From assembly GCA_965200315.1 (NCBI GenBank), contig OZ241362.1, positions 2,752,001 to 2,816,000 of the forward strand: a stretch of DNA of 64,000 nucleotides. The letters are read 5' to 3'. The notes under the pieces are model-generated. The model was given only the letters and a program-made list of their open reading frames with translations. It ran no database searches and had not been told where the DNA came from. Positions 28,667-38,067 of this stretch are shown piece after piece. The stretch's first letter is position 1; each line of letters starts with the position of its first letter. The position numbers and the translations under genes are program-made. The DNA is from Candidatus Latescibacterota bacterium (GTDB lineage: Bacteria > Latescibacterota > UBA2968 > UBA8231).

Positions 28667-30313
28667 CTAGCTCGTCGGGCGAACGCGGGGGCCGTTCAGC
28701 AATCGGCCCAGCCAAGTGTAGCGGACGAGGAATTGGTAGATCAGCAACAGAAAGCCAGTGCCTACGAGCAAAACCAAGAAGTACTTTATGCCGGAAGAAA
28801 GCGGCCAATCGCGCACGGCCAATTGAGCACCAATGACCAACGGTACGTGCGCCACGTATAGCCAGTACGACGAATCCGACAAGTAGCGAATGGTTTTGTT
28901 TTCGCGGGTGCAGAGTTTGCGAAACAAGCCCATGAACCCAAAGGTCATTATCCAAGCGTAGATCACCTGCAAAGCCACCGCTGAGGTTCGGGCCATGGCC
29001 GGGCCGAATATCTCTTGGCGAAATCCGAATACACCCACTGAAAATTCGAGCCCGAGCGGGAAGACGATAAACAGCCCCACGGGAAGCGCCAGCCACCACC
29101 ATTTTCCGACTCGGCCGTCTGGGTCGTCGCAGTCGAAATACAGAGCACCAAAGAAGAAAAAGAGGACGTAGTAAAGTACTATGTGCGGCATGGGCAGAAG
29201 GCCCAAGGAGGTATCCGGGCCAAAACTCGGTATGACCAGTCCCATGAGCGACTGTGGGATCATGGTCAGAGGGATCAAATAGAGAAAGCGAACGGGTGAA
29301 AGAATGAGCCACTTGGGCGGTCCTTGCCATTGCAGCCAATCAGCGAGGCGGGCGTAGAGTGCAAAGGCGAGGACCAACCAGCAGAGGAACCACAAGAACC
29401 AGAGGTGGTGAAAAACCGGCACGGCAAAGATCGGCCATGCCATCGCTTTAATAAACCCGGTCGATTTCTCCTCTGTCTCGTCGATTTTTTCTTGTCCAGT
29501 GGAGGATTGTTCAAAAAGTCCGGCGATTTCAACGCGGCCGCCCTCAACTTGTCGCGCATCGAGTTCAATCTGCAACAGGCCCGCCAAATACCTAGTCAGT
29601 TCCCAATCCACTTCCAGAGCCATCCGAGGCGTATCGCCATTGTTGTTTTTTGCTTCGGGATCTGCTCCGTGCTGAAGCAGCAGCTTGGCGACTTGCACCC
29701 GTCCCAAGAAAGCGGCCGCGTGCAAGGGGGTGCCGCCATCTTTGGTGCGGCCATTGACCGCGGCTCCGTTTTGCAGCAGCCAATTGACGGCCTCAAGCTG
29801 GCCGACCAGCGCGGCCCATACTAGGGGCGTTTGCCCGGAGGCCAGATCAATACCATTGATATCGGCTTCGTCTTGCAGGTGTCGTTCAATAGCGGCGAGG
29901 TCCCCGTTCTTGGCTGCGTCCCAGATAGTGTCTTCTGCGGCTTTGGCCGCGTTGGCTTCAAATGCAGATGCAATAGCCCAGCCGCTGATCCAGTTCACCG
30001 CCGGAACGATGGTCACCAGCCCGAGCAGGAACGGCAGCAACACGCGGCGCAAGCGGTGGGAAAGCACTGGTTTTAAGCCGCGCCCGCGCCAAAGCATGGC
30101 CGTAAAAAAGCCGCTCAACACAAAGAACACCGGCATGCGGAAACCGTGGATTGCGGCGAATAACAGCCCGAAGAAATCGCTTTGCCGCTCATCCTGAACC
30201 GGCCAAGGAAACGGCGTGAAGGACAACCCCGCGTGCAATGCGATGCCGAGCAACATCGCCGCGGCGCGCAGGGCGTCGAGGTCGTAGCGGCGCGGGTAAG
30301 AGTTCCTATTCAC
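28667..30313 (-). CDS. Acyltransferase family 3 (OpgC/MdoC-like) with inserted ankyrin repeats
   Basis: RRYDLDALRA, FRMPVFFVLSGFF, HHLWFLWFL; ankyrin GQTPLVWAA, GGTPLHAAA, GDTP. Confidence 0.85.
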   Translation of the reverse strand: MNRNSYPRRYDLDALRAAAMLLGIALHAGLSFTPFPWPVQDERQSDFFGLLFAAIHGFRMPVFFVLSGFFTAMLWRGRGLKPVLSHRLRRVLLPFLLGLVTIVPAVNWISGWAIASAFEANAAKAAEDTIWDAAKNGDLAAIERHLQDEADINGIDLASGQTPLVWAALVGQLEAVNWLLQNGAAVNGRTKDGGTPLHAAAFLGRVQVAKLLLQHGADPEAKNNNGDTPRMALEVDWELTRYLAGLLQIELDARQVEGGRVEIAGLFEQSSTGQEKIDETEEKSTGFIKAMAWPIFAVPVFHHLWFLWFLCWLVLAFALYARLADWLQWQGPPKWLILSPVRFLYLIPLTMIPQSLMGLVIPSFGPDTSLGLLPMPHIVLYYVLFFFFGALYFDCDDPDGRVGKWWWLALPVGLFIVFPLGLEFSVGVFGFRQEIFGPAMARTSAVALQVIYAWIMTFGFMGLFRKLCTRENKTIRYLSDSSYWLYVAHVPLVIGAQLAVRDWPLSSGIKYFLVLLVGTGFLLLIYQFLVRYTWLGRLLNGPRVRPTS

Positions 30314-30321
30314 GGCTTGTA

Positions 30322-31572
30322 CTACTCCACCCTTCTCAACGTCCCTCCATCCCGGACGGCCTCGTAAATCTGGGCGAACTCGCGGCTGCCGTCGTCTTCG
30401 ACCGGGAGGCATTCGGACCCGCTTTCGCAGATGGGCATGGCGTCGCGGGGGTACTCGTTGTGGAGGGCTTGCTTGGAGCAGCCATAGTAGGTGACTTCGC
30501 CGTTGGCGCGAGCGTAGCGATAGACGTGGCGAGGCGGATCGACCCAACTGTAGTCCACGCGATATTGCTCTAGGGCCTGAAGATCAATCTCGATGCCGAG
30601 GCCGGGCCGTTCTGGGACTCGGTAGTAGCCGCCGCGAAGCTCAATGGAATCGACCAACAGTTGGCTCTCCCAGATGTTCATGCAGGTAATGGCCGGCCAC
30701 TTGCTCTGGGGGCAGACCGCACCTAAGTGGGCGGCCCACGTGGTGGTGATGCCCGTGCCGACGAGCTGGAGCCAGAAGGGTTTGTTGGCCACGTCCGCGA
30801 CTGCGGATTGCTGGACGATGCCGTGGGCTCCAGCGCAGACGACAAAACCATCGGTGACATCTTCTTGCAGGGTGGTGAGAATCGGCGGCGAGCCGTAGTG
30901 CATGGCCAGAGGGCGGCGGATGTGGTTGCGGATTTGGGCGTTGCCGGCCACATCGGATTGGGGGATGGGCGTCTCAATCATGGCCACCTGCGGGTATTGC
31001 TCCAAGGCGGCTAAAAACTCGACCGCACTGGCGGCGTTGGCGAGCGTGCCGTTGAAGTCCAAGTCGAGCTTGAACTGCGGGGGAACAGCCTCAATAATGG
31101 CTTGGATGCAGGCGTGCAGGTCGTACCATGTTCGCGCCTTGAGCTTGGCGGTGGTATAGCCCTGCGCGACGGCGTCGGCGCACTGGCGCGCCCAGTCTGC
31201 GGCCGGCATGTCTATCGCCCACCACGACAGCGGGCACCAAGTGCGGACCTTGGTGCCCAACAGGCGATAAGCTGGGGCACCCAAGACCTTGCCCACTGCG
31301 TCGAAAAGCGCCTGCTGGACCCCGGCTCCCAGCACATCCTGCCACAGCAAATCGCCGACCGCACGGCCGACGATGCGGTCTTCGATGTCTTCGGGGACCT
31401 TGGCCCACGTGTAGTTGGGGATGGTCTCGCCCCAGCCAATGGTGCCATCGGCGAGGGTGATTTTGCAGAGCTGGACAATGCGCCAATGCGGCAGCCAGTA
31501 CTGCATGTGCTGATTGGTGTGGGCGGTAAACGGAACGTCCAAGTGGATGAGCTCGACGGATTGAACCTGCAT
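30322..31572 (-). CDS. Mandelate racemase/MLE family protein, paralog of 1935-3176
   Basis: Shares CP.SWWA..MP...WA, K.KAR.WYD, PIPQ.DV, PFWLQ.VGTG. Confidence 0.85.
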   Translation of the reverse strand: MQVQSVELIHLDVPFTAHTNQHMQYWLPHWRIVQLCKITLADGTIGWGETIPNYTWAKVPEDIEDRIVGRAVGDLLWQDVLGAGVQQALFDAVGKVLGAPAYRLLGTKVRTWCPLSWWAIDMPAADWARQCADAVAQGYTTAKLKARTWYDLHACIQAIIEAVPPQFKLDLDFNGTLANAASAVEFLAALEQYPQVAMIETPIPQSDVAGNAQIRNHIRRPLAMHYGSPPILTTLQEDVTDGFVVCAGAHGIVQQSAVADVANKPFWLQLVGTGITTTWAAHLGAVCPQSKWPAITCMNIWESQLLVDSIELRGGYYRVPERPGLGIEIDLQALEQYRVDYSWVDPPRHVYRYARANGEVTYYGCSKQALHNEYPRDAMPICESGSECLPVEDDGSREFAQIYEAVRDGGTLRRVE

Positions 31573-31659
31573 TAGGGGCTCCTTTTGGAAGGGGTGGGGT
31601 GGGCTAGATACGGCGGGGCAAGCCAAGTGTCAAGGCGGGGAATGCGTTATATTCGCGGC

Positions 31660-33780
31660 ATGGAAATTCGCCAATTCGCCGAGCAAGTGCTTTTCGGCAC
31701 GCGCTGGGAAGACAAGCTGGTCGTCCTCAACCGCTACGAGGACCGCGCGCCCGGTGCGGGGATTGCGACCCCCAGTGCGCCGGGCCGCCCGCCCGGTTTG
31801 GGGCTGGACGAGTGGCACCGCCGGGAAAAGCTCCGCTTCCGCGATGTGCGCCACTTCCACAGCGAAAAGGAGCGCGGGCTGGTCTTGCACTTTTTCGCCA
31901 ACCATGAGTTGCTCGCCTTGGAGCTGATGGCCCTGGCCCTGCTCAAATTTCCGCAGGCTCCAGAGAAGTTTCGCCGCGGCCTGGTGCAGACGCTCAAAGA
32001 CGAGCAAGAGCACGTGCGGCTCTACCAGCAGCGAATGCAGGAGATTGGCGTACAATTTGGCGAGATACCGGTCGGCGACTTTTTCTGGAAGGCCATCGGG
32101 CCGATGGAGACCCCGATGGATTTTGTGACGGGCTTGAGCCTGACCCTCGAACAAGCCAATCTCGACTACGCACGGCACTACGCCGAGGTCTATCGGCAGT
32201 TGGACGACCCGGAAACCGCAGCGATTCTGGAGCGGATCTACCGCGACGAAATTGGCCACGTCAAGCACGGATTGACGTGGTTTAGGCGCTGGCAGGAGGC
32301 CGGGCTGAGCGAATGGGACGCCTATCGCCGGGCGCTGCGCTTTCCGCTAGGGCCGGCGCGAGCCAAGGGCCTTGGCTTCAACCGCGTGGGTCGGCTCCAA
32401 GCGGGGCTTTCTGCGGATTATATCGACGAATTGGAGCTGTTCTCGCAGTCGCGGGGACGCTGCCCGGCCGTGTACTGGTTCAATGCCAACTGCGAGGAGC
32501 AGGTGGCCTTGGGGCGGCCGGGTCTTACGCCGCCGCAGCGGGTGGCTGAGTTGGAGGCCGACTTCCAAGCGCTGCCCATGCTGTTGTGCGTCCGCGACGA
32601 TATGGTGCTGCTGCGCGAGAAGCCTTCGCCGGCCTTTTTGCGGCGGATGCAGGGGTTGGGCTTTGCGATACCGGAATTTGTCGAGCGTAGTGCAGATGGC
32701 TTAGCGGCACTTGCCGAGCGCAAGGTCAACGCGCTCAGGCCTTGGGGTTGGAGTCCAGACAGCGCCGAGTTGCTAGCGCCGTTGGTCGAGGGTTTGCCTC
32801 GCGGTGGGGAAGGGCCTTGCTGGAGCGCGGCGATTCGGTCGCTCTACGCCAAGTCGTGGAGCGCAGCGCGGCTGGGGGAGTTTCTCGCGGCGCAGGAGAC
32901 CGACTATTTCTGCGGGACGGATGTAGTCGGCACGGCCTGCGCGACGACAGAACAATTAGTAGTGCAGATAGAGCACTTGGCGGAGGCGGGTTTTGACTCG
33001 GTGGTCGTCAAGGCCATCTACGGCTCTGCGGGCCGCGGCCAAATCCACTGCCGTGGAGGACAACTGCGCGCGGAGCAGCGCGGTCGCTTGGAGAACATCT
33101 TGCGACAGCAAGGCCAAGTCTTAGTAGAGCCGTGGCTCGACAAGGTGGTGGATCTGTCGCTGCACTTCGACGTGGGGGCCGGAGGTGCGGTGGCGGTGGT
33201 CGGCTGGACGCGGTTTTTCACCGATGGACGCGGCCAGTATCGCGGCTCGTTTGTCGGTGCGCTTACCGCTGGCCTCGACGAGGAGGTAAAGCGATTTCTC
33301 TACGGCGATGGGCGCGATGCACGCCGCTTGCCCCGCTTGGGCGAGCAACTTGCCGAATGGCTCGCTGATCCGTTGTACGCTGCTGGTTATCAGGGGCCAG
33401 TCGGCGTGGATGCCATGGTGTACCGCGACCGCGACCGGATGCGGCTAAAGCCGATTGTGGAGATCAATCCGCGCACGACGATGGGGCGAGTGGCACTCAA
33501 GTTGCAACAGGCGGTTAATTCGGCGCGCACGGCTCTGTGGCTGGTGATTAGCCGTCGCGAGGTGACGGTGGCTGGGTTTGCTGGCTTGGCCGAATGTGCC
33601 GCTGCGCTGGAGGCCGCACATCCGGCCCGGCTGATGCCCGATGGCAAGCAGTTGAGGGACGGGGTGCTTTTTACGACTGATCCGGCGCAGGCCCGTTCTT
33701 TTGCTACCGTGCTGCTGGTCGGCCAATCGCTGGCCGAGTGTGAGGGGTACTTGCGAGAAGTGGGACTGGCACTCAAGTAA
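31660..33780 (+). CDS. Ferritin-like (DUF455) domain fused to ATP-grasp-like domain
   Basis: HFFANHELLALE, DEQEH, LEQANLD, DEIGH; VVKAIYGSAGRG, VEPW, GPVGVDAMVY, VEINPR. Confidence 0.75.
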   Translation: MEIRQFAEQVLFGTRWEDKLVVLNRYEDRAPGAGIATPSAPGRPPGLGLDEWHRREKLRFRDVRHFHSEKERGLVLHFFANHELLALELMALALLKFPQAPEKFRRGLVQTLKDEQEHVRLYQQRMQEIGVQFGEIPVGDFFWKAIGPMETPMDFVTGLSLTLEQANLDYARHYAEVYRQLDDPETAAILERIYRDEIGHVKHGLTWFRRWQEAGLSEWDAYRRALRFPLGPARAKGLGFNRVGRLQAGLSADYIDELELFSQSRGRCPAVYWFNANCEEQVALGRPGLTPPQRVAELEADFQALPMLLCVRDDMVLLREKPSPAFLRRMQGLGFAIPEFVERSADGLAALAERKVNALRPWGWSPDSAELLAPLVEGLPRGGEGPCWSAAIRSLYAKSWSAARLGEFLAAQETDYFCGTDVVGTACATTEQLVVQIEHLAEAGFDSVVVKAIYGSAGRGQIHCRGGQLRAEQRGRLENILRQQGQVLVEPWLDKVVDLSLHFDVGAGGAVAVVGWTRFFTDGRGQYRGSFVGALTAGLDEEVKRFLYGDGRDARRLPRLGEQLAEWLADPLYAAGYQGPVGVDAMVYRDRDRMRLKPIVEINPRTTMGRVALKLQQAVNSARTALWLVISRREVTVAGFAGLAECAAALEAAHPARLMPDGKQLRDGVLFTTDPAQARSFATVLLVGQSLAECEGYLREVGLALK

Positions 33781-33786
33781 CTGACG

Positions 33787-34200
33787 TTACGCGGCTTCGT
33801 CTAGCAGGTGCCTAAAGGCTTCGAGGCTGGGCACCTGTATGGCCGCCCGGTGTAGCTGCTTGAGGCGCTGCCCATCGTCGATGGTCCCAATGCGAGCGAC
33901 CAACGGACCCGACTCGGCCATCCCAAAGCGAATCTCCAGCACGTCGAGCAAATCTTCAATGGCGCGTTCTCGGCCTCCTTGCTCGATGCCTTTCCCGTGA
34001 AATACTGCACTACCGACGATTCGTATATGGTCGCCTCCGCGATGATGGTCATAATCGTTTCTAACTTTTTTACACTAATCCACCGAATCACTTGGTATTG
34101 CACCAAGACGCGGTAGCCAAGCCGCTCTTGGAGATAGTGCCCCGGATCGGTGCGACCAGCGTCGGGACGCAAATTATACGGCGTATTGCTTTTTACATGA
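33787..34200 (-). pseudogene. Rpn/DUF4351-like remnant (frameshift, internal deletion)
   Basis: YNLRPDAGRTDPG...YESSVVQYF, then shifted IEQGGRERAIEDLLDVLEIRFG...LKQLHRAA...LEAFRHLL. Confidence 0.6.
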
Positions 34201-34232
34201 CTCGACAAGGAATCTGGATTGAATGGGAATCT

Positions 34233-34258
34233 GTAGGAGCAACCCTTGCGGTCGCCCT
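34233..34258 (+). repeat. GTAG-type REP-like palindrome
   Basis: GTAGGAGCAACCCTTGCGGTCGCCCT, near-identical to 40195-40220. Confidence 0.6.
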
Positions 34259-35823: not shown

Positions 35824-38067
35824 TTATTGATCCAGCCTGCTCACGGCTGCGACGAGTGCCTCAGTCGTGATACCGAAGTGCGCCCACGTCTCTAGATGGC
35901 CCTCTGACGGGGCGGTCGTGGGGTCGGTAATGCCGATATGCGCCGCTGGAATGCCCAAGTCGCTAGCGACGCCTGCCACCAGCCCGGCGAAACCGCGTAC
36001 GCCAGTATTGGCTGCGCCGATCAGGCCATCTTCTATAGTTACCACGCCCTTGGGATAGCGACCCACTAGTTCTTCTAAGGCAGCGGCCGGCAGCGGCAGC
36101 CCATTAATTATATGCACATCCACCGAGCCTTCGAGCTGCTCAGCCGCTTCACCGGCCAGAAAAGCCGGCGCACCAAAAGCCAAGATCGCCCGCTCGGCTC
36201 CAGAGTACGTGCGATAGGCCGTCAGCGGCTCCCAAGCGTCGCCCGGCTCCCACAGCGGCCCAGAGCCGTCTTGCTTTGCGAGGATGGGCAGGGAATCGCG
36301 CGGGATGCCGATGATGTGCCCTCCGTAGTGCGCCGCCATATCGCAGACCGCCAAAAACGCCGCCCGCGCATCGGCTGGCCCGTAGAAGCGGTGCAGATAG
36401 GGCAAATAGCTCAAGCCGACGTTGATCCACTCCAAGCCCCAACCCGAAAAGTGATCGCGCCCGGTGCAGGCTCCCACGTGCGAGACGTGGAAGGCGACGT
36501 TGAGGCCCTCGTTGACGCCGGTGAGGTTGCGCTGATAACGCCAGACGTCAAAGCCCTCGCGGGCAATGCCCTCGTAAAAGGCGGCAAACGTCGATACCAC
36601 ATTGAGCTGCGGACCCGGCCTGCTCATCGCCAATCCATCGGTGATCAAACAAGCGGCTTGCTCCTCAATGCTCATCTCGAATTGGTGATCCGCGGCCAAG
36701 AAACCGCGCGCCTTCGCCAGCTTGGTCGAGGGGTCGAGGTCGCAGCTAACGACGAAGACGTCGTCGGGGAAATGCGCGGCCACCGCTGCGTACGCAGCCT
36801 CGGACCCGGCGCGAGGGCTTTCGCTTATGCCCACTGTGGGCAAGCTAACCTTTTCCCGCGCATCTTGCGGCAGAACCAAATTGCTGCTGCCGGGAGCAGG
36901 TCTAGCTCGGGTTTCAACTTGGCGCTTCTCGCCTTGGCGCAGCGTCGCTAGGGCTTGGTCCGCAGCCGCTGTCTTTTGAAACATCGGATTGCTCAGCACT
37001 TGCGCGGCGTCGCGGCCCTTCATGTGGCCGTCGTGATGCCCTTCGCCGCCGGGGAGCTTGTTGACCAAGAAGAGGCACTCGAGCATCGGCACTACGTCTC
37101 GGTAGCTCATCAGCGAGCCGGGGACCCAGATGCGAGTGCTGAGATCGACGCCGTGCTCGGCGGCGAACGCTGCGACCTCGGAACCAATGCCCAAGCGATC
37201 GCCAAAGTCGCCGAGGAGTTCGTGCGTTCCCGTGGGATAGATCAACGTCGGTCGCCCTTGCTGCGCCAGTTTGTAGCTTTCGACATAGGTTTCGTAGAGT
37301 GCTGCATCGTCGTGCAGGGTCTCGATCTCGATAACTTCCACGCCCATCGCCGCAACGATCGGACGCGGGTCCTTGTCCATAATGCCCTCGGTCACGCCCG
37401 AAAGCTGGATGCCGTTGCGGTGCATGACGAAGGTAATCGGCGCTCCGTGGACGGCTGCGCCGTTGAAGCCGTTGAGCGCTTGACCCGAGATGTAGCCGGC
37501 GTCGCCACAGTGGCAGACGACCCAGCTACCCTCGCCGAGCTTGGCCCGCTTGCCGAGGGCTTGGCCCACGGCCACCGGGATCATCACCCCCAAGCGCCCG
37601 CCGTTGAGTTGGGTGCCACCCGGCAGCCAAGACACGTGCCCGGGAGCGTCGAGCCCGCGGCGGAAACCCTCGACGACAATCTCCTCATCGATAAAGCCCA
37701 GTGCCGCCAGTGCCGCGTAGTAGCCCACGGAGGTGTGGGCGTGTTCGATGGTGTACTCGATGCGTTCGTAGTCGGTGACAGCCAAGGTCAGCAAGAGCGG
37801 CGGAATCAGCTCTAGACCGCCGCCGAGGTGGTCCAGTTCGCCGATTTCGGCCAACGAGGCCAGCGAGCGGATTGCGATCGCGGCTGCTTCGATCTGCAAG
37901 CCTTCTAGGGCGGCGATTTGCGCTGGATGCAGTGCTTGTTGTTTGCCGATATCCACGGTGAGCGGCAAGACCTCGGAATGCACTTTCTCGCCTAGATAGC
38001 GCACTCCGCTCAACAGCTCTTTGTTGCGCTGCTGTTGGCCTACTTGCGCCGCTTCGATCCCCCGCAT
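35824..38067 (-). CDS. Divergent transketolase-like ThDP enzyme
   Basis: DHLGGGL, GH...PGG...GG.LG, GDAG...N ThDP-like motif, SIEEQ, STFAAF, HVG...G.DH. Confidence 0.7.
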   Translation of the reverse strand: MRGIEAAQVGQQQRNKELLSGVRYLGEKVHSEVLPLTVDIGKQQALHPAQIAALEGLQIEAAAIAIRSLASLAEIGELDHLGGGLELIPPLLLTLAVTDYERIEYTIEHAHTSVGYYAALAALGFIDEEIVVEGFRRGLDAPGHVSWLPGGTQLNGGRLGVMIPVAVGQALGKRAKLGEGSWVVCHCGDAGYISGQALNGFNGAAVHGAPITFVMHRNGIQLSGVTEGIMDKDPRPIVAAMGVEVIEIETLHDDAALYETYVESYKLAQQGRPTLIYPTGTHELLGDFGDRLGIGSEVAAFAAEHGVDLSTRIWVPGSLMSYRDVVPMLECLFLVNKLPGGEGHHDGHMKGRDAAQVLSNPMFQKTAAADQALATLRQGEKRQVETRARPAPGSSNLVLPQDAREKVSLPTVGISESPRAGSEAAYAAVAAHFPDDVFVVSCDLDPSTKLAKARGFLAADHQFEMSIEEQAACLITDGLAMSRPGPQLNVVSTFAAFYEGIAREGFDVWRYQRNLTGVNEGLNVAFHVSHVGACTGRDHFSGWGLEWINVGLSYLPYLHRFYGPADARAAFLAVCDMAAHYGGHIIGIPRDSLPILAKQDGSGPLWEPGDAWEPLTAYRTYSGAERAILAFGAPAFLAGEAAEQLEGSVDVHIINGLPLPAAALEELVGRYPKGVVTIEDGLIGAANTGVRGFAGLVAGVASDLGIPAAHIGITDPTTAPSEGHLETWAHFGITTEALVAAVSRLDQ

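Follow-up and report, generated by a model that had tools for sequence, protein, structure and literature searches.

A reading frame on the forward strand of a 64,000-nucleotide stretch of DNA from a Candidatus Latescibacterota bacterium (the window) encodes a protein of 706 aa (P0001), in which a DUF455 di-iron domain is fused to an ATP-grasp ligase of the PGM1/BesA/LdmS type (31660..33780). The reading favoured here, to which we give somewhat less than an even chance, is that of a two-step, single-copy, lineage-core enzyme, in which the ligase forms an amide of an amino acid or a peptide and the di-iron half oxidises the same molecule. The frame runs without interruption from the ATG at 31660 to the TAA at 33780; an in-frame TTG at 31585 is a possible alternative start that would add 25 residues, and the homologues align from the Met of the ATG. 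All of the DUF455 and ATP-grasp motifs quoted in the preliminary description are present in this one frame, and a six-frame HMM search of the source genome (G000) gave one match for either half. Since 1,579 homologues (388–1236 aa) were found among 8,000 candidates scored, and stop-free full-length matches occur in 24 of the 25 genomes of the same genus (the remaining one, G020, matches residues 1–590), the fusion is not a product of chance or of the assembly. The literature searched, chiefly open-access papers, describes no function for DUF455 or for the fusion, the latter in agreement with what had been claimed.

The N-terminal half (aa 1–262; 31660..32445, forward strand) comprises an extended arm with a conserved PGRP motif, followed by a ferritin-like four-helix bundle. 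Pfam DUF455 (PF04305) matches aa 39–255 with an E-value of 3.4e-47 and 161.6 bits, against a gathering cut-off of 34.3, and PF04305 was carried by 30/30 Atlas matches of this half. In the AlphaFold2 model of the protein (pLDDT 91.7, pTM 0.87), the bundle helices are placed at residues 69–96, 102–129, 152–180, and 184–211. The ligands follow the order E, ExxH, E, ExxH that is the ferritin-like di-iron pattern, and their conservation was scored over 114 diverse full-length homologues: N81, H82, E83, and E88 of the helix-1 motif H77-F-F-A-N81-H82-E83-L-L-A-L-E88 (31888..31923) are kept in 114/114 and H77 in 113/114, and E115 and H118 of the first ExxH motif (E115-Q-E-H118; 32002..32013), E164 of helix 3 in E-Q-A-N-L-D169 (32149..32166; quoted previously as L-E164-Q-A-N), and E197 and H200 of the second ExxH motif (E197-I-G-H200; 32248..32259) are kept in all 114. 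Thus, the full di-metal ligand set that had been proposed is intact. Structure matches of this half to ferritin-like bundles are middling for a helical bundle (Z 13–14.6), so that it was assigned from the Pfam match and the motifs.

The PGRP motif, the helix-1 His and Glu, and both ExxH motifs are common to this half and other DUF455 proteins (PF04305, COG2833), and the conserved Glu of solitary DUF455 proteins has its counterpart in E83. The ligase-linked subtype is marked by N81-H82; it carries NHE and ExANxD, as opposed to the (H/N/S)IE and ExxGLD of ligase-free DUF455. Neither NHE nor ExANxD occurs in the 14 ligase-free ferritin-like matches, whose genomes yielded no ligase. Like MiaE, Coq7, AurF, ADO, and BioE, the protein has a four-helix bundle with ligands in the same E/ExxH/E/ExxH order (ADO-like chains, Z 12.8–13.9); however, it has no Pfam match to any of these families at E 0.01 (MiaE PF06175 included). 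MiaE, Coq7, and AurF are absent among the best 50 structure matches listed, an absence that does not exclude them. To our knowledge, no oxygenase of these types is fused to an ATP-grasp ligase. The AurF-type motif includes an additional His, placed four residues ahead of the last ExxH, where the query has Ile (residue 193); the invariant H82, judged from the alignment, may be an additional metal ligand at a different place. Identity with BioE was rejected: the ligand spacing is 32/49/33 (E83-E115-E164-E197) rather than the 27/72/30 described for Chlamydia BioE (PMC12915131), and no biotin genes were present among the scanned neighbours.

A short, conserved junction (S264, G266, R267, P269; 32443..32481), which is also the breakpoint of the split genes described below, leads into the C-terminal half. 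The distance from H200 to F274 is 74 aa in 83 of the 114 homologues, and this fixed length, together with the pTM of the model, suggests a set spatial arrangement of the two predicted halves. The C-terminal half (aa 263–706; 32446..33777) is composed of a pre-ATP-grasp domain (PWGW, K398) and ATP-grasp domains, with the motifs V-V-K451-A-I-Y-G-S-A-G458-R-G, V-E490-P-W, G-V-D584, and E601-I-N603-P-R605. The ATP-phosphate Lys and P-loop (K451 to G458; 33010..33033) and the Mg/carboxylate site (D584 to E601-I-N603-P-R605-T-T-M-G609; 33409..33486) are intact as claimed, with K451, D584, E601, N603, and R605 in 114/114 homologues and the hinge Glu E490 in 104/114. No Pfam or NCBIfam family scored above its cut-off in this half; PreAtp-grasp (PF18604) gave no match to the query at E 0.01 and 17.4 bits for one homologue, below the cut-off of 27.5, and Atlas neighbours at 0.92–0.93 carry this family.

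The preliminary description had staked its proposal on an ATP-grasp fold for this half, and the predicted structure bears it out: the best matches span residues 267–704, the pre-ATP-grasp domain included (Foldseek E 4e-14, Z up to 28.2), and are closest to amino-acid/peptide ligases. These are 3wvq/3wvr, which we take to be the pheganomycin peptide ligase PGM1 (Z 28.2/27.6; for 3wvq, Z 27.6, rmsd 3.3, and 381 residues aligned), the Streptomyces peptide ligase 8ynd/8ynq (Z 25.9; across these two enzymes, rmsd 3.1–3.3 and 359–381 aligned residues), the L-propargylglycine-L-glutamate ligase BesA (8yi6; Z 25.2–25.4 over ~380 residues), and the Staphylococcus aureus L-Asp-L-Met ligase LdmS (SAOUHSC_02373; 7r8p/7r8q; Z 24.2–24.6, with 24.2 for 7r8p). 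Ligases of this group fill the first seven places in one structure comparison and the first four in the other, and they stand 4–8 Z units above the next match, PurK (Z 19.6). Identity to the solved ligases is 14–18%. When PDB sequences were searched with the whole protein or with profiles A1 and A2, no match fell below E 0.04; the ligase profile reached a single one under E 0.001, LdmS (E 0.0007). A modelled fold match alone does not give the substrate.

BesA has the GqYxG loop and the ExNxR motif in common with the query, and the beta-ethynylserine pathway pairs a BesA-type ligase with a di-iron oxidase, BesC; unlike the DUF455 half, BesC is a separate, heme-oxygenase-like protein encoded in a multi-gene cluster. 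PGM1 is described as working alongside a core peptide in a cluster for an antibiotic and as using a peptide acceptor (PMC8939145), whereas the query has no cluster and carries a fused di-iron domain. LdmS is likewise a core gene beside a peptidase, HmrA, with which it is paired (PMC9486568), but it has no di-iron partner. Its catalytic K173, E215, D288, D301, and R305, to which that report assigns the roles of ATP Lys, hinge Glu, Mg-binding D/ExN, and carboxylate Arg (PMC9486568), correspond to K451, E490, D584, E601, and R605; for the Mg/carboxylate site, which includes LdmS position 303, the correspondence was mapped by motif and not by structural superposition. Of the residues of the LdmS Asp site, Y252 and R305 are kept in the query family as Y/F527 and R605, whereas the Asp pocket Q244/N255/N307/S309 is replaced by F519/S530 (variable)/T607/G609, as judged from HMM alignment and motif mapping. 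Asp is thus unlikely to be the acyl donor.

By analogy with this family, the C-terminal half would bind Mg-ATP and phosphorylate an amino-acid-type carboxylate to an acyl-phosphate, which would then be joined to an amino acid or a short peptide through the amine of the latter, as LdmS, BesA, and PGM1 do. The N-terminal half would assemble a carboxylate-bridged di-iron site (E83, E115/H118, E164, E197/H200) and, presumably with O2, oxidise the same molecule, most simply by hydroxylation. On the present data, ligation followed by oxidation is only slightly favoured over the reverse order. The ligase would be the core activity, and the DUF455 half a dedicated, dispensable subtype with no use apart from the ligase. 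Genes for substrate supply do not accompany the fusion, so that common metabolites of the cell are the expected substrates. On the other hand, a small-molecule product would not usually come from a monocistronic gene that has neither an exporter nor pathway genes beside it.

The phylogenetic distribution bears on whether the two halves are coupled, as had been proposed. The fusion is kept across several bacterial phyla. In Bdellovibrionota, nine genomes carry it, and wherever a separate NHE-type DUF455 gene occurs the ligase lies directly downstream on the same strand (19/19 genomes; 18 within −16 to +27 nt). These split pairs overturn the idea that the N-terminal subtype is never a separate gene. 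Of the 120 shorter N-half homologues listed, 70 extend into the ligase half, 31 stop within the di-iron half, and 19 stop at the junction; as they come without DNA context, they were left out of the stand-alone counts. In the genomes compared, the NHE...ExANxD subtype was not found without the ligase. The ligase itself occurs in 44/45 genomes of the family and DUF455 in 40/45, the stand-alone ligases nest among fused ones in the tree, and ligase relatives also stand alone in five records from Bacteroidales, a largely anaerobic order (PF04305 has no match in the B. thetaiotaomicron control). The coupling is therefore asymmetric: that of DUF455 to the ligase holds, and that of the ligase to DUF455 does not. 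As several lineages retain the ligase but not DUF455, oxidation would be an optional add-on rather than an obligatory step, and the di-iron half is probably an O2-dependent tailoring module. COX1 is present in 37/40 DUF455-positive genomes of the family, yet the link of this half to oxygen is weak, since two of the four ligase-only genomes also have COX1.

It is also tempting to speculate, though we consider it doubtful, that the pair makes a novel amino-acid or peptide conjugate, or a protein or RNA mark, that is core to several poorly studied phyla; DUF455 would oxidise it (or remove it by oxidation) in aerobes, and gut Bacteroidales would keep it unoxidised. If so, DUF455 would gain its first reaction, and a metabolite or modification of housekeeping character, one form of which depends on oxygen, would come to light. 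Both folds and their chemistries are of known kinds, and the novelty lies in the pairing and the housekeeping-like distribution. DUF455 is widespread, and a ligase-tied subtype makes its function directly testable, with the fused, split-adjacent (Bdellovibrionota), and ligase-only forms (some sister genomes, Bacteroidales) as built-in natural controls. In common gut bacteria, the gene for the ligase-only form lacks an annotation, and its product may therefore be a widespread metabolite or modification that has been overlooked.

The gene neighbourhoods vary. The 134 flanking proteins scanned form a mixed housekeeping set with no family common across phyla, and no biosynthetic cluster was found in 80 GTDB loci. 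The search for precursor peptides covered ORFs above 60–90 aa; the gap upstream of the gene is 87 bp, and the split genes are flush. Amide or peptide hydrolases are direct neighbours in unrelated lineages, namely leucyl aminopeptidase at three loci, aminopeptidase P at six, and a D-aminoacylase-like amidohydrolase at four distinct loci, and an M28 peptidase lies two genes upstream in 14/20 loci. The peptidases were counted in favour of an amino-acid/peptide ligase, but peptidases are common and the loci are related within each lineage.

RNA helicases also recur. A Suv3-like helicase lies directly upstream in 19/19 split genomes and DeaD within two genes at seven loci, with scattered occurrences of RsgA, YebC, ProRS, QueA, and ABC-F, so that a macromolecular substrate fits equally well. 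An amino acid would then be added to the terminus or a side chain of a protein, or to an RNA-linked group, of the translation apparatus, and the adduct hydroxylated when O2 is available, for which the lysylation and hydroxylation of EF-P, or hypusination, provide a precedent. This alternative, which we consider unlikely although it is the foremost competitor of the two-step small-molecule reading, is consistent with a single-copy gene that is vertically kept without pathway genes, with the peptide acceptor of PGM1, and with the shorter split ligases (293–365 aa). Nevertheless, the source genome has no match to the Suv3-like helicase, and the mark would not be essential, since the ligase is absent from 75/75 other genomes of the phylum. 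The substrates that had been suggested also fared poorly. EF-P, an idea that came from the neighbours, was rejected for this lineage, since EpmA exceeds its cut-off in the source genome and in 3/3 ligase-negative relatives (it passed in 0/5 distant ligase-positive genomes, three of which scored near it), and the PGKG loop of EF-P is alike with and without the gene (8/10 loci read). A role for the fusion as a substitute for MiaE on tRNA was abandoned, as MiaE occurs in one of five genomes and that one (G140) has the fusion. Among metabolites, aminolipids were suggested by the Ser-Gly flavolipin; the OlsB/GlsB-type family PF13444 is absent from G000 and G070 and present in three of five genomes, which lends no support to a head-group ligase in this lineage, although one may yet occur in Bacteroidales. 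The portion of an aminolipid review consulted names only GlsA/GlsB.

Another possibility is that the N-terminal half is a redox or metal module (for peroxide removal, or O2 or iron sensing) that guards or switches the ligase and leaves the product untouched. In the structure comparison, Dps- and bacterioferritin-like chains come closest to the bundle (Z 13–14.6, tied), a peroxiredoxin gene precedes the solitary DUF455 of Sinorhizobium and Sphingomonas, and the half is dispensable. However, these bundle matches are middling and oxygenases (ADO-like 5ux2, 6d9f) reach equal Z; moreover, this half is better conserved than the ligase (50% vs 35% mean identity to the query over the 114 homologues), and the long conserved arm and the subtype residues N81, H82, A166, and N167 beside the metal ligands are as expected of a substrate pocket. 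Such a module thus appears improbable.

Ranking next, and improbable as well, is a writer and an eraser in one chain, in which the amide formed by the ligase is taken off again by oxidation at the di-iron half, a hydrolytic amidohydrolase replacing the eraser in some lineages. Oxidative bond cleavage is known for the ferritin-like di-iron enzyme BioE (PMC12704756). A D-aminoacylase-like gene of ~500 aa lies directly upstream of the stand-alone ligase (L108, L109, L165 of G075, and L166/L110 of G070), at the locus where sister genomes carry the DUF455 half, and its orthologue occurs in 2/46 family genomes, both of which lack DUF455 and COX1. Nonetheless, these four loci form one clade, and the swap thus represents one event; G095 and G125 lost DUF455 cleanly without gaining the amidohydrolase, so that it is not an obligatory replacement (absent from two of four ligase-only genomes); and three annotated Bacteroidales records show no such neighbour of the ligase. 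That two housekeeping genes unrelated to each other are joined as a passenger fusion, conceivable insofar as each family occurs alone in other phyla, is very improbable and is close to refuted by the adjacency kept in all 19 split genomes, together with the subtype found solely with the ligase and a fusion kept across several phyla.

A frame of 1,316–1,337 aa in L110/L166 proved to be a shadow frame over two other genes and not a new fusion. The 87-bp gap 5′ of the fusion gene (31573..31659), which separates it from a divergent enolase-superfamily gene, is the presumed promoter region; a sigma-70 consensus promoter was not found in it, and terminator-like sites are at chance level. A weak hint, which we do not count as evidence because it comes from contigs of a single study and DNA carry-over is possible, is that RNA-library contigs from three runs span the gene and end in this gap; an unlabelled run (X6) reads through it.

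The fusion is encoded in one open frame of 706 aa on the forward strand, from an ATG at 31660 to a TAA at 33780, within which all the motifs quoted in the preliminary description were found. Its N-terminal half comprises a DUF455 domain (aa 39-255, E 3.4e-47 in Pfam); no Pfam family scored above cut-off in the C-terminal half, and an NCBIfam search gave only sub-threshold ferritin-like matches. An AlphaFold2 model of the fusion (48-row alignment; pLDDT 91.7, pTM 0.87) was compared with 48,161 representative chains. Over roughly residues 267-704, the C-half best matched 3wvq (Z 27.6, rmsd 3.3, 381 aligned), entitled just "ATP grasp protein," which we take to be the pheganomycin peptide ligase PGM1, followed by 8ynd (Z 25.9), the L-propargylglycine-L-glutamate ligase BesA (8yi6, Z 25.2), the S. 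aureus L-Asp-L-Met ligase LdmS (7r8p, Z 24.2), and then PurK (19.6). Foldseek and a second structural comparison gave the same ligase group; the ATP-grasp assignment, originally made from motifs, is supported by this predicted fold of the PGM1/BesA/LdmS type. The N-half matched Dps-like, bacterioferritin-like and ADO-like ferritin-like bundles, all tied at Z 13-14.6, which is middling for a helical bundle.

For conservation, 113 of 153 homologues were aligned to the query; they were chosen for a length of 640-800 aa, a single protein was excluded for its atypical start, and nearly all are representatives of 50%-identity clusters. The full di-metal ligand set that had been described in the N-half is present and invariant; N81, H82, E83, E88, E115, H118, E164, E197, and H200 occur in 114/114 proteins, as do K451, D584, E601, N603, and R605 in the C-half. 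Mean identity to the query is 50% in the N-half versus 35% in the C-half, and the junction between them is nearly constant in length. By HMM alignment and the ExNxR motif, not coordinates, the LdmS residues K173, E215, D288, D301, and R305, whose roles are described in PMC9486568, correspond to K451, E490, D584, E601, and R605 of the fusion. On the same basis, the Asp-pocket residues of LdmS (Q244, N255, N307, and S309) are replaced by F519, a variable residue at 530, T607, and G609, and therefore the acyl donor of the C-half is probably other than Asp.

The gene is patchily distributed between lineages and near-universal inside some. Fusion homologues numbered 1,579 among 8,000 scored candidates, and the best 80 of 508 confirmed GTDB stretches bear the labels Latescibacterota, Gemmatimonadota, SAR324, Bdellovibrionota, Verrucomicrobiota, and Lentisphaerales, some of which are plainly wrong. 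The source genome has one copy of each half, and the nearest GTDB relatives of the fusion (89-93% identity) are mostly labeled Candidatus Latescibacterota. Within the phylum, the ligase half is found in 44/45 genomes of the same family versus 0/75 of other families, and DUF455 in 40/45 versus 0/75. Matches occur in 76/104 genomes of the phylum of the compared genome G139, every one with a junction-crossing frame, and in 4/150 drawn Verrucomicrobiota genomes, all four fused. The 57 metagenome loci comprise 42 fused forms, 10 that the start of the contig truncates, and 5 stand-alone ligases.

In Bdellovibrionota (the phylum of G137), matches were obtained in 43/121 genomes, of which 9 have the fusion, 19 carry a strong separate DUF455, 14 give weak ferritin-like matches, and 1 has a fragment. 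All 19 separate DUF455 genes are followed directly downstream, on the same strand, by the ligase; the spacing is -16 to +27 nt in 18 cases, and an ORF intervenes in the other. These split ligases are true homologues of the C-half (hhalign probability 99.7) that retain D, ExNxR, and TMG. N81-H82-E83 and ExANxD are present in all 114 fused and all 16 aligned split proteins; NHE or ExANxD occurs in 0/14 of the weak ferritin-like matches, of which 12 show xIE...ExxGLD, as in solitary proteobacterial DUF455, and two are another ferritin-like type. A ligase search of the 14 weak-match, 1 fragment, and 7 DUF455-negative genomes gave 0/22; its positive controls were recovered 3/3, but these were in the model. 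The proposed coupling of the halves thus holds in one direction: this DUF455 subtype goes with the ligase, but the ligase is autonomous.

Four family genomes (G070, G075, G095, and G125; completeness 86-92%) contain the ligase and lack DUF455, with intact upstream DNA and no DUF455 remnant. In a quick maximum-likelihood tree of 67 ligase domains (midpoint root, SH-aLRT only, some stand-alone rows being proteins without DNA context), stand-alone ligases with DNA context are interspersed with fused ones at three points (L108/L109/L165/L166; L167/L168; L135). The pattern suggests that the di-iron half was lost more than once. Bacteroidales ligases are placed apart; they stand alone in five records, in agreement with Atlas neighbours. 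They are annotated "hypothetical protein" (L101-L103, L173, and L174), and in 4/5 records an AAA ATPase and nifJ are divergent from them. COX1 occurs in 37/40 DUF455-positive family genomes versus 2/4 ligase-only genomes, and Bacteroidales is a largely anaerobic order; both observations are weakly consistent with an O2-dependent add-on, the genomes being few and related. On a Streptomyces plasmid, a distantly related ligase (L104:7941-9137) lies in a cluster that also contains radical SAM, ACP, condensation domain, and MFS genes, apparently a separate biosynthetic use of the family.

The fusion is one protein with two intact conserved sites, a dedicated DUF455 subtype, and an autonomous ligase. 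By analogy with family chemistry, the C-half would form an amide via an acyl-phosphate and the N-half would activate O2 at a di-iron center; the distribution suggests that both may share a substrate, oxidation being an optional tailoring step. The product may tentatively be a small amino-acid or peptide amide, the leading reading. The nearest known parallel is a gene cluster in which a BesA-type ligase works alongside a di-iron oxidase that is a protein of its own. Among 80 GTDB loci, read for ORFs of at least 60-90 aa, no biosynthetic cluster surrounds the fusion and no gene family accompanies it between phyla; flanking genes are mixed housekeeping (134 of 195 representatives scanned). Amide or peptide hydrolases recur beside the gene in unrelated lineages, with leucyl aminopeptidase at 3 loci, aminopeptidase P at 6, an M28 peptidase near the split pair at 14/20 split loci, and a D-aminoacylase-like gene beside the ligase at 4 distinct loci of a single clade.

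Modification of protein or RNA is a less probable alternative. RNA helicases also recur: DeaD at 7 loci, and a Suv3-like helicase (PF22527) upstream of the split pair, mostly flush, in 19/19 Bdellovibrionota genomes (L183-L201); the latter has no match in the source genome, and neither neighbour theme is decisive. That the N-half is a redox module is doubtful, and a writer-eraser pair in one chain is likewise improbable. A passenger fusion is very improbable. EF-P, MiaE-substitute, aminolipid (background in PMC12971839 and PMC11631085), and BioE (likewise PMC12704756 and PMC12915131) readings were tested and unsupported. The D-aminoacylase-like amidohydrolase (L165:4377-5876; also L166, L108, and L109) lies, in a single clade of ligase-only loci, where related loci have the DUF455 half; its orthologue is present in 2/46 family genomes, both without DUF455, and absent from the other two DUF455-less genomes, which rules it out as a required substitute.

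Full-text searching of mostly open-access main texts turned up neither a function for DUF455 nor any account of the fusion, in line with the earlier statement that no characterised enzyme of such architecture is known. Passages in PMC9988556, PMC4520260, and PMC12828279 mention DUF455 solely as an uncharacterised ferritin-like family or as a list entry, and neither "ferritin" nor "diiron" occurs in the main text of PMC4431377 and PMC8939145. The fusion is a real, conserved, apparently uncharacterised, predicted bifunctional enzyme, both component folds being already known. Its main value is that DUF455 function becomes testable by screening the ligase, for which the fused, split, and ligase-only forms serve as natural controls.

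Among a further set of loci (L105, L176, L106, and L063), the solitary DUF455 gene of two alphaproteobacteria follows a peroxiredoxin gene, and a gamma-carbonic-anhydrase-like gene flanks DUF455 in Ralstonia and also the fusion in two Verrucomicrobiota loci. A Geobacillus plasmid DUF455 with an N-terminal extension of roughly 110 aa lies between transposases (L107:7389-8522).

In the window, the fusion is separated by 87 bp from a divergent enolase-superfamily gene and has a convergent EamA gene on its other side, and thus is probably monocistronic. Right behind its stop codon, a palindromic intergenic repeat (33796-33870), with five more genomic copies at 88-90% plus one short match, is probably a REP-like hairpin or terminator. 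Farther on, before the EamA gene is reached, short interrupted frames (33870-34250) may be a decayed small-gene pair. Nearby on the reverse strand are an acyltransferase-3 membrane protein into which a block of ankyrin repeats is inserted (28667-30547) and a transketolase-like TPP enzyme of 747 aa with weak Pfam matches (35824-38067; E 7e-5 to 4e-4).
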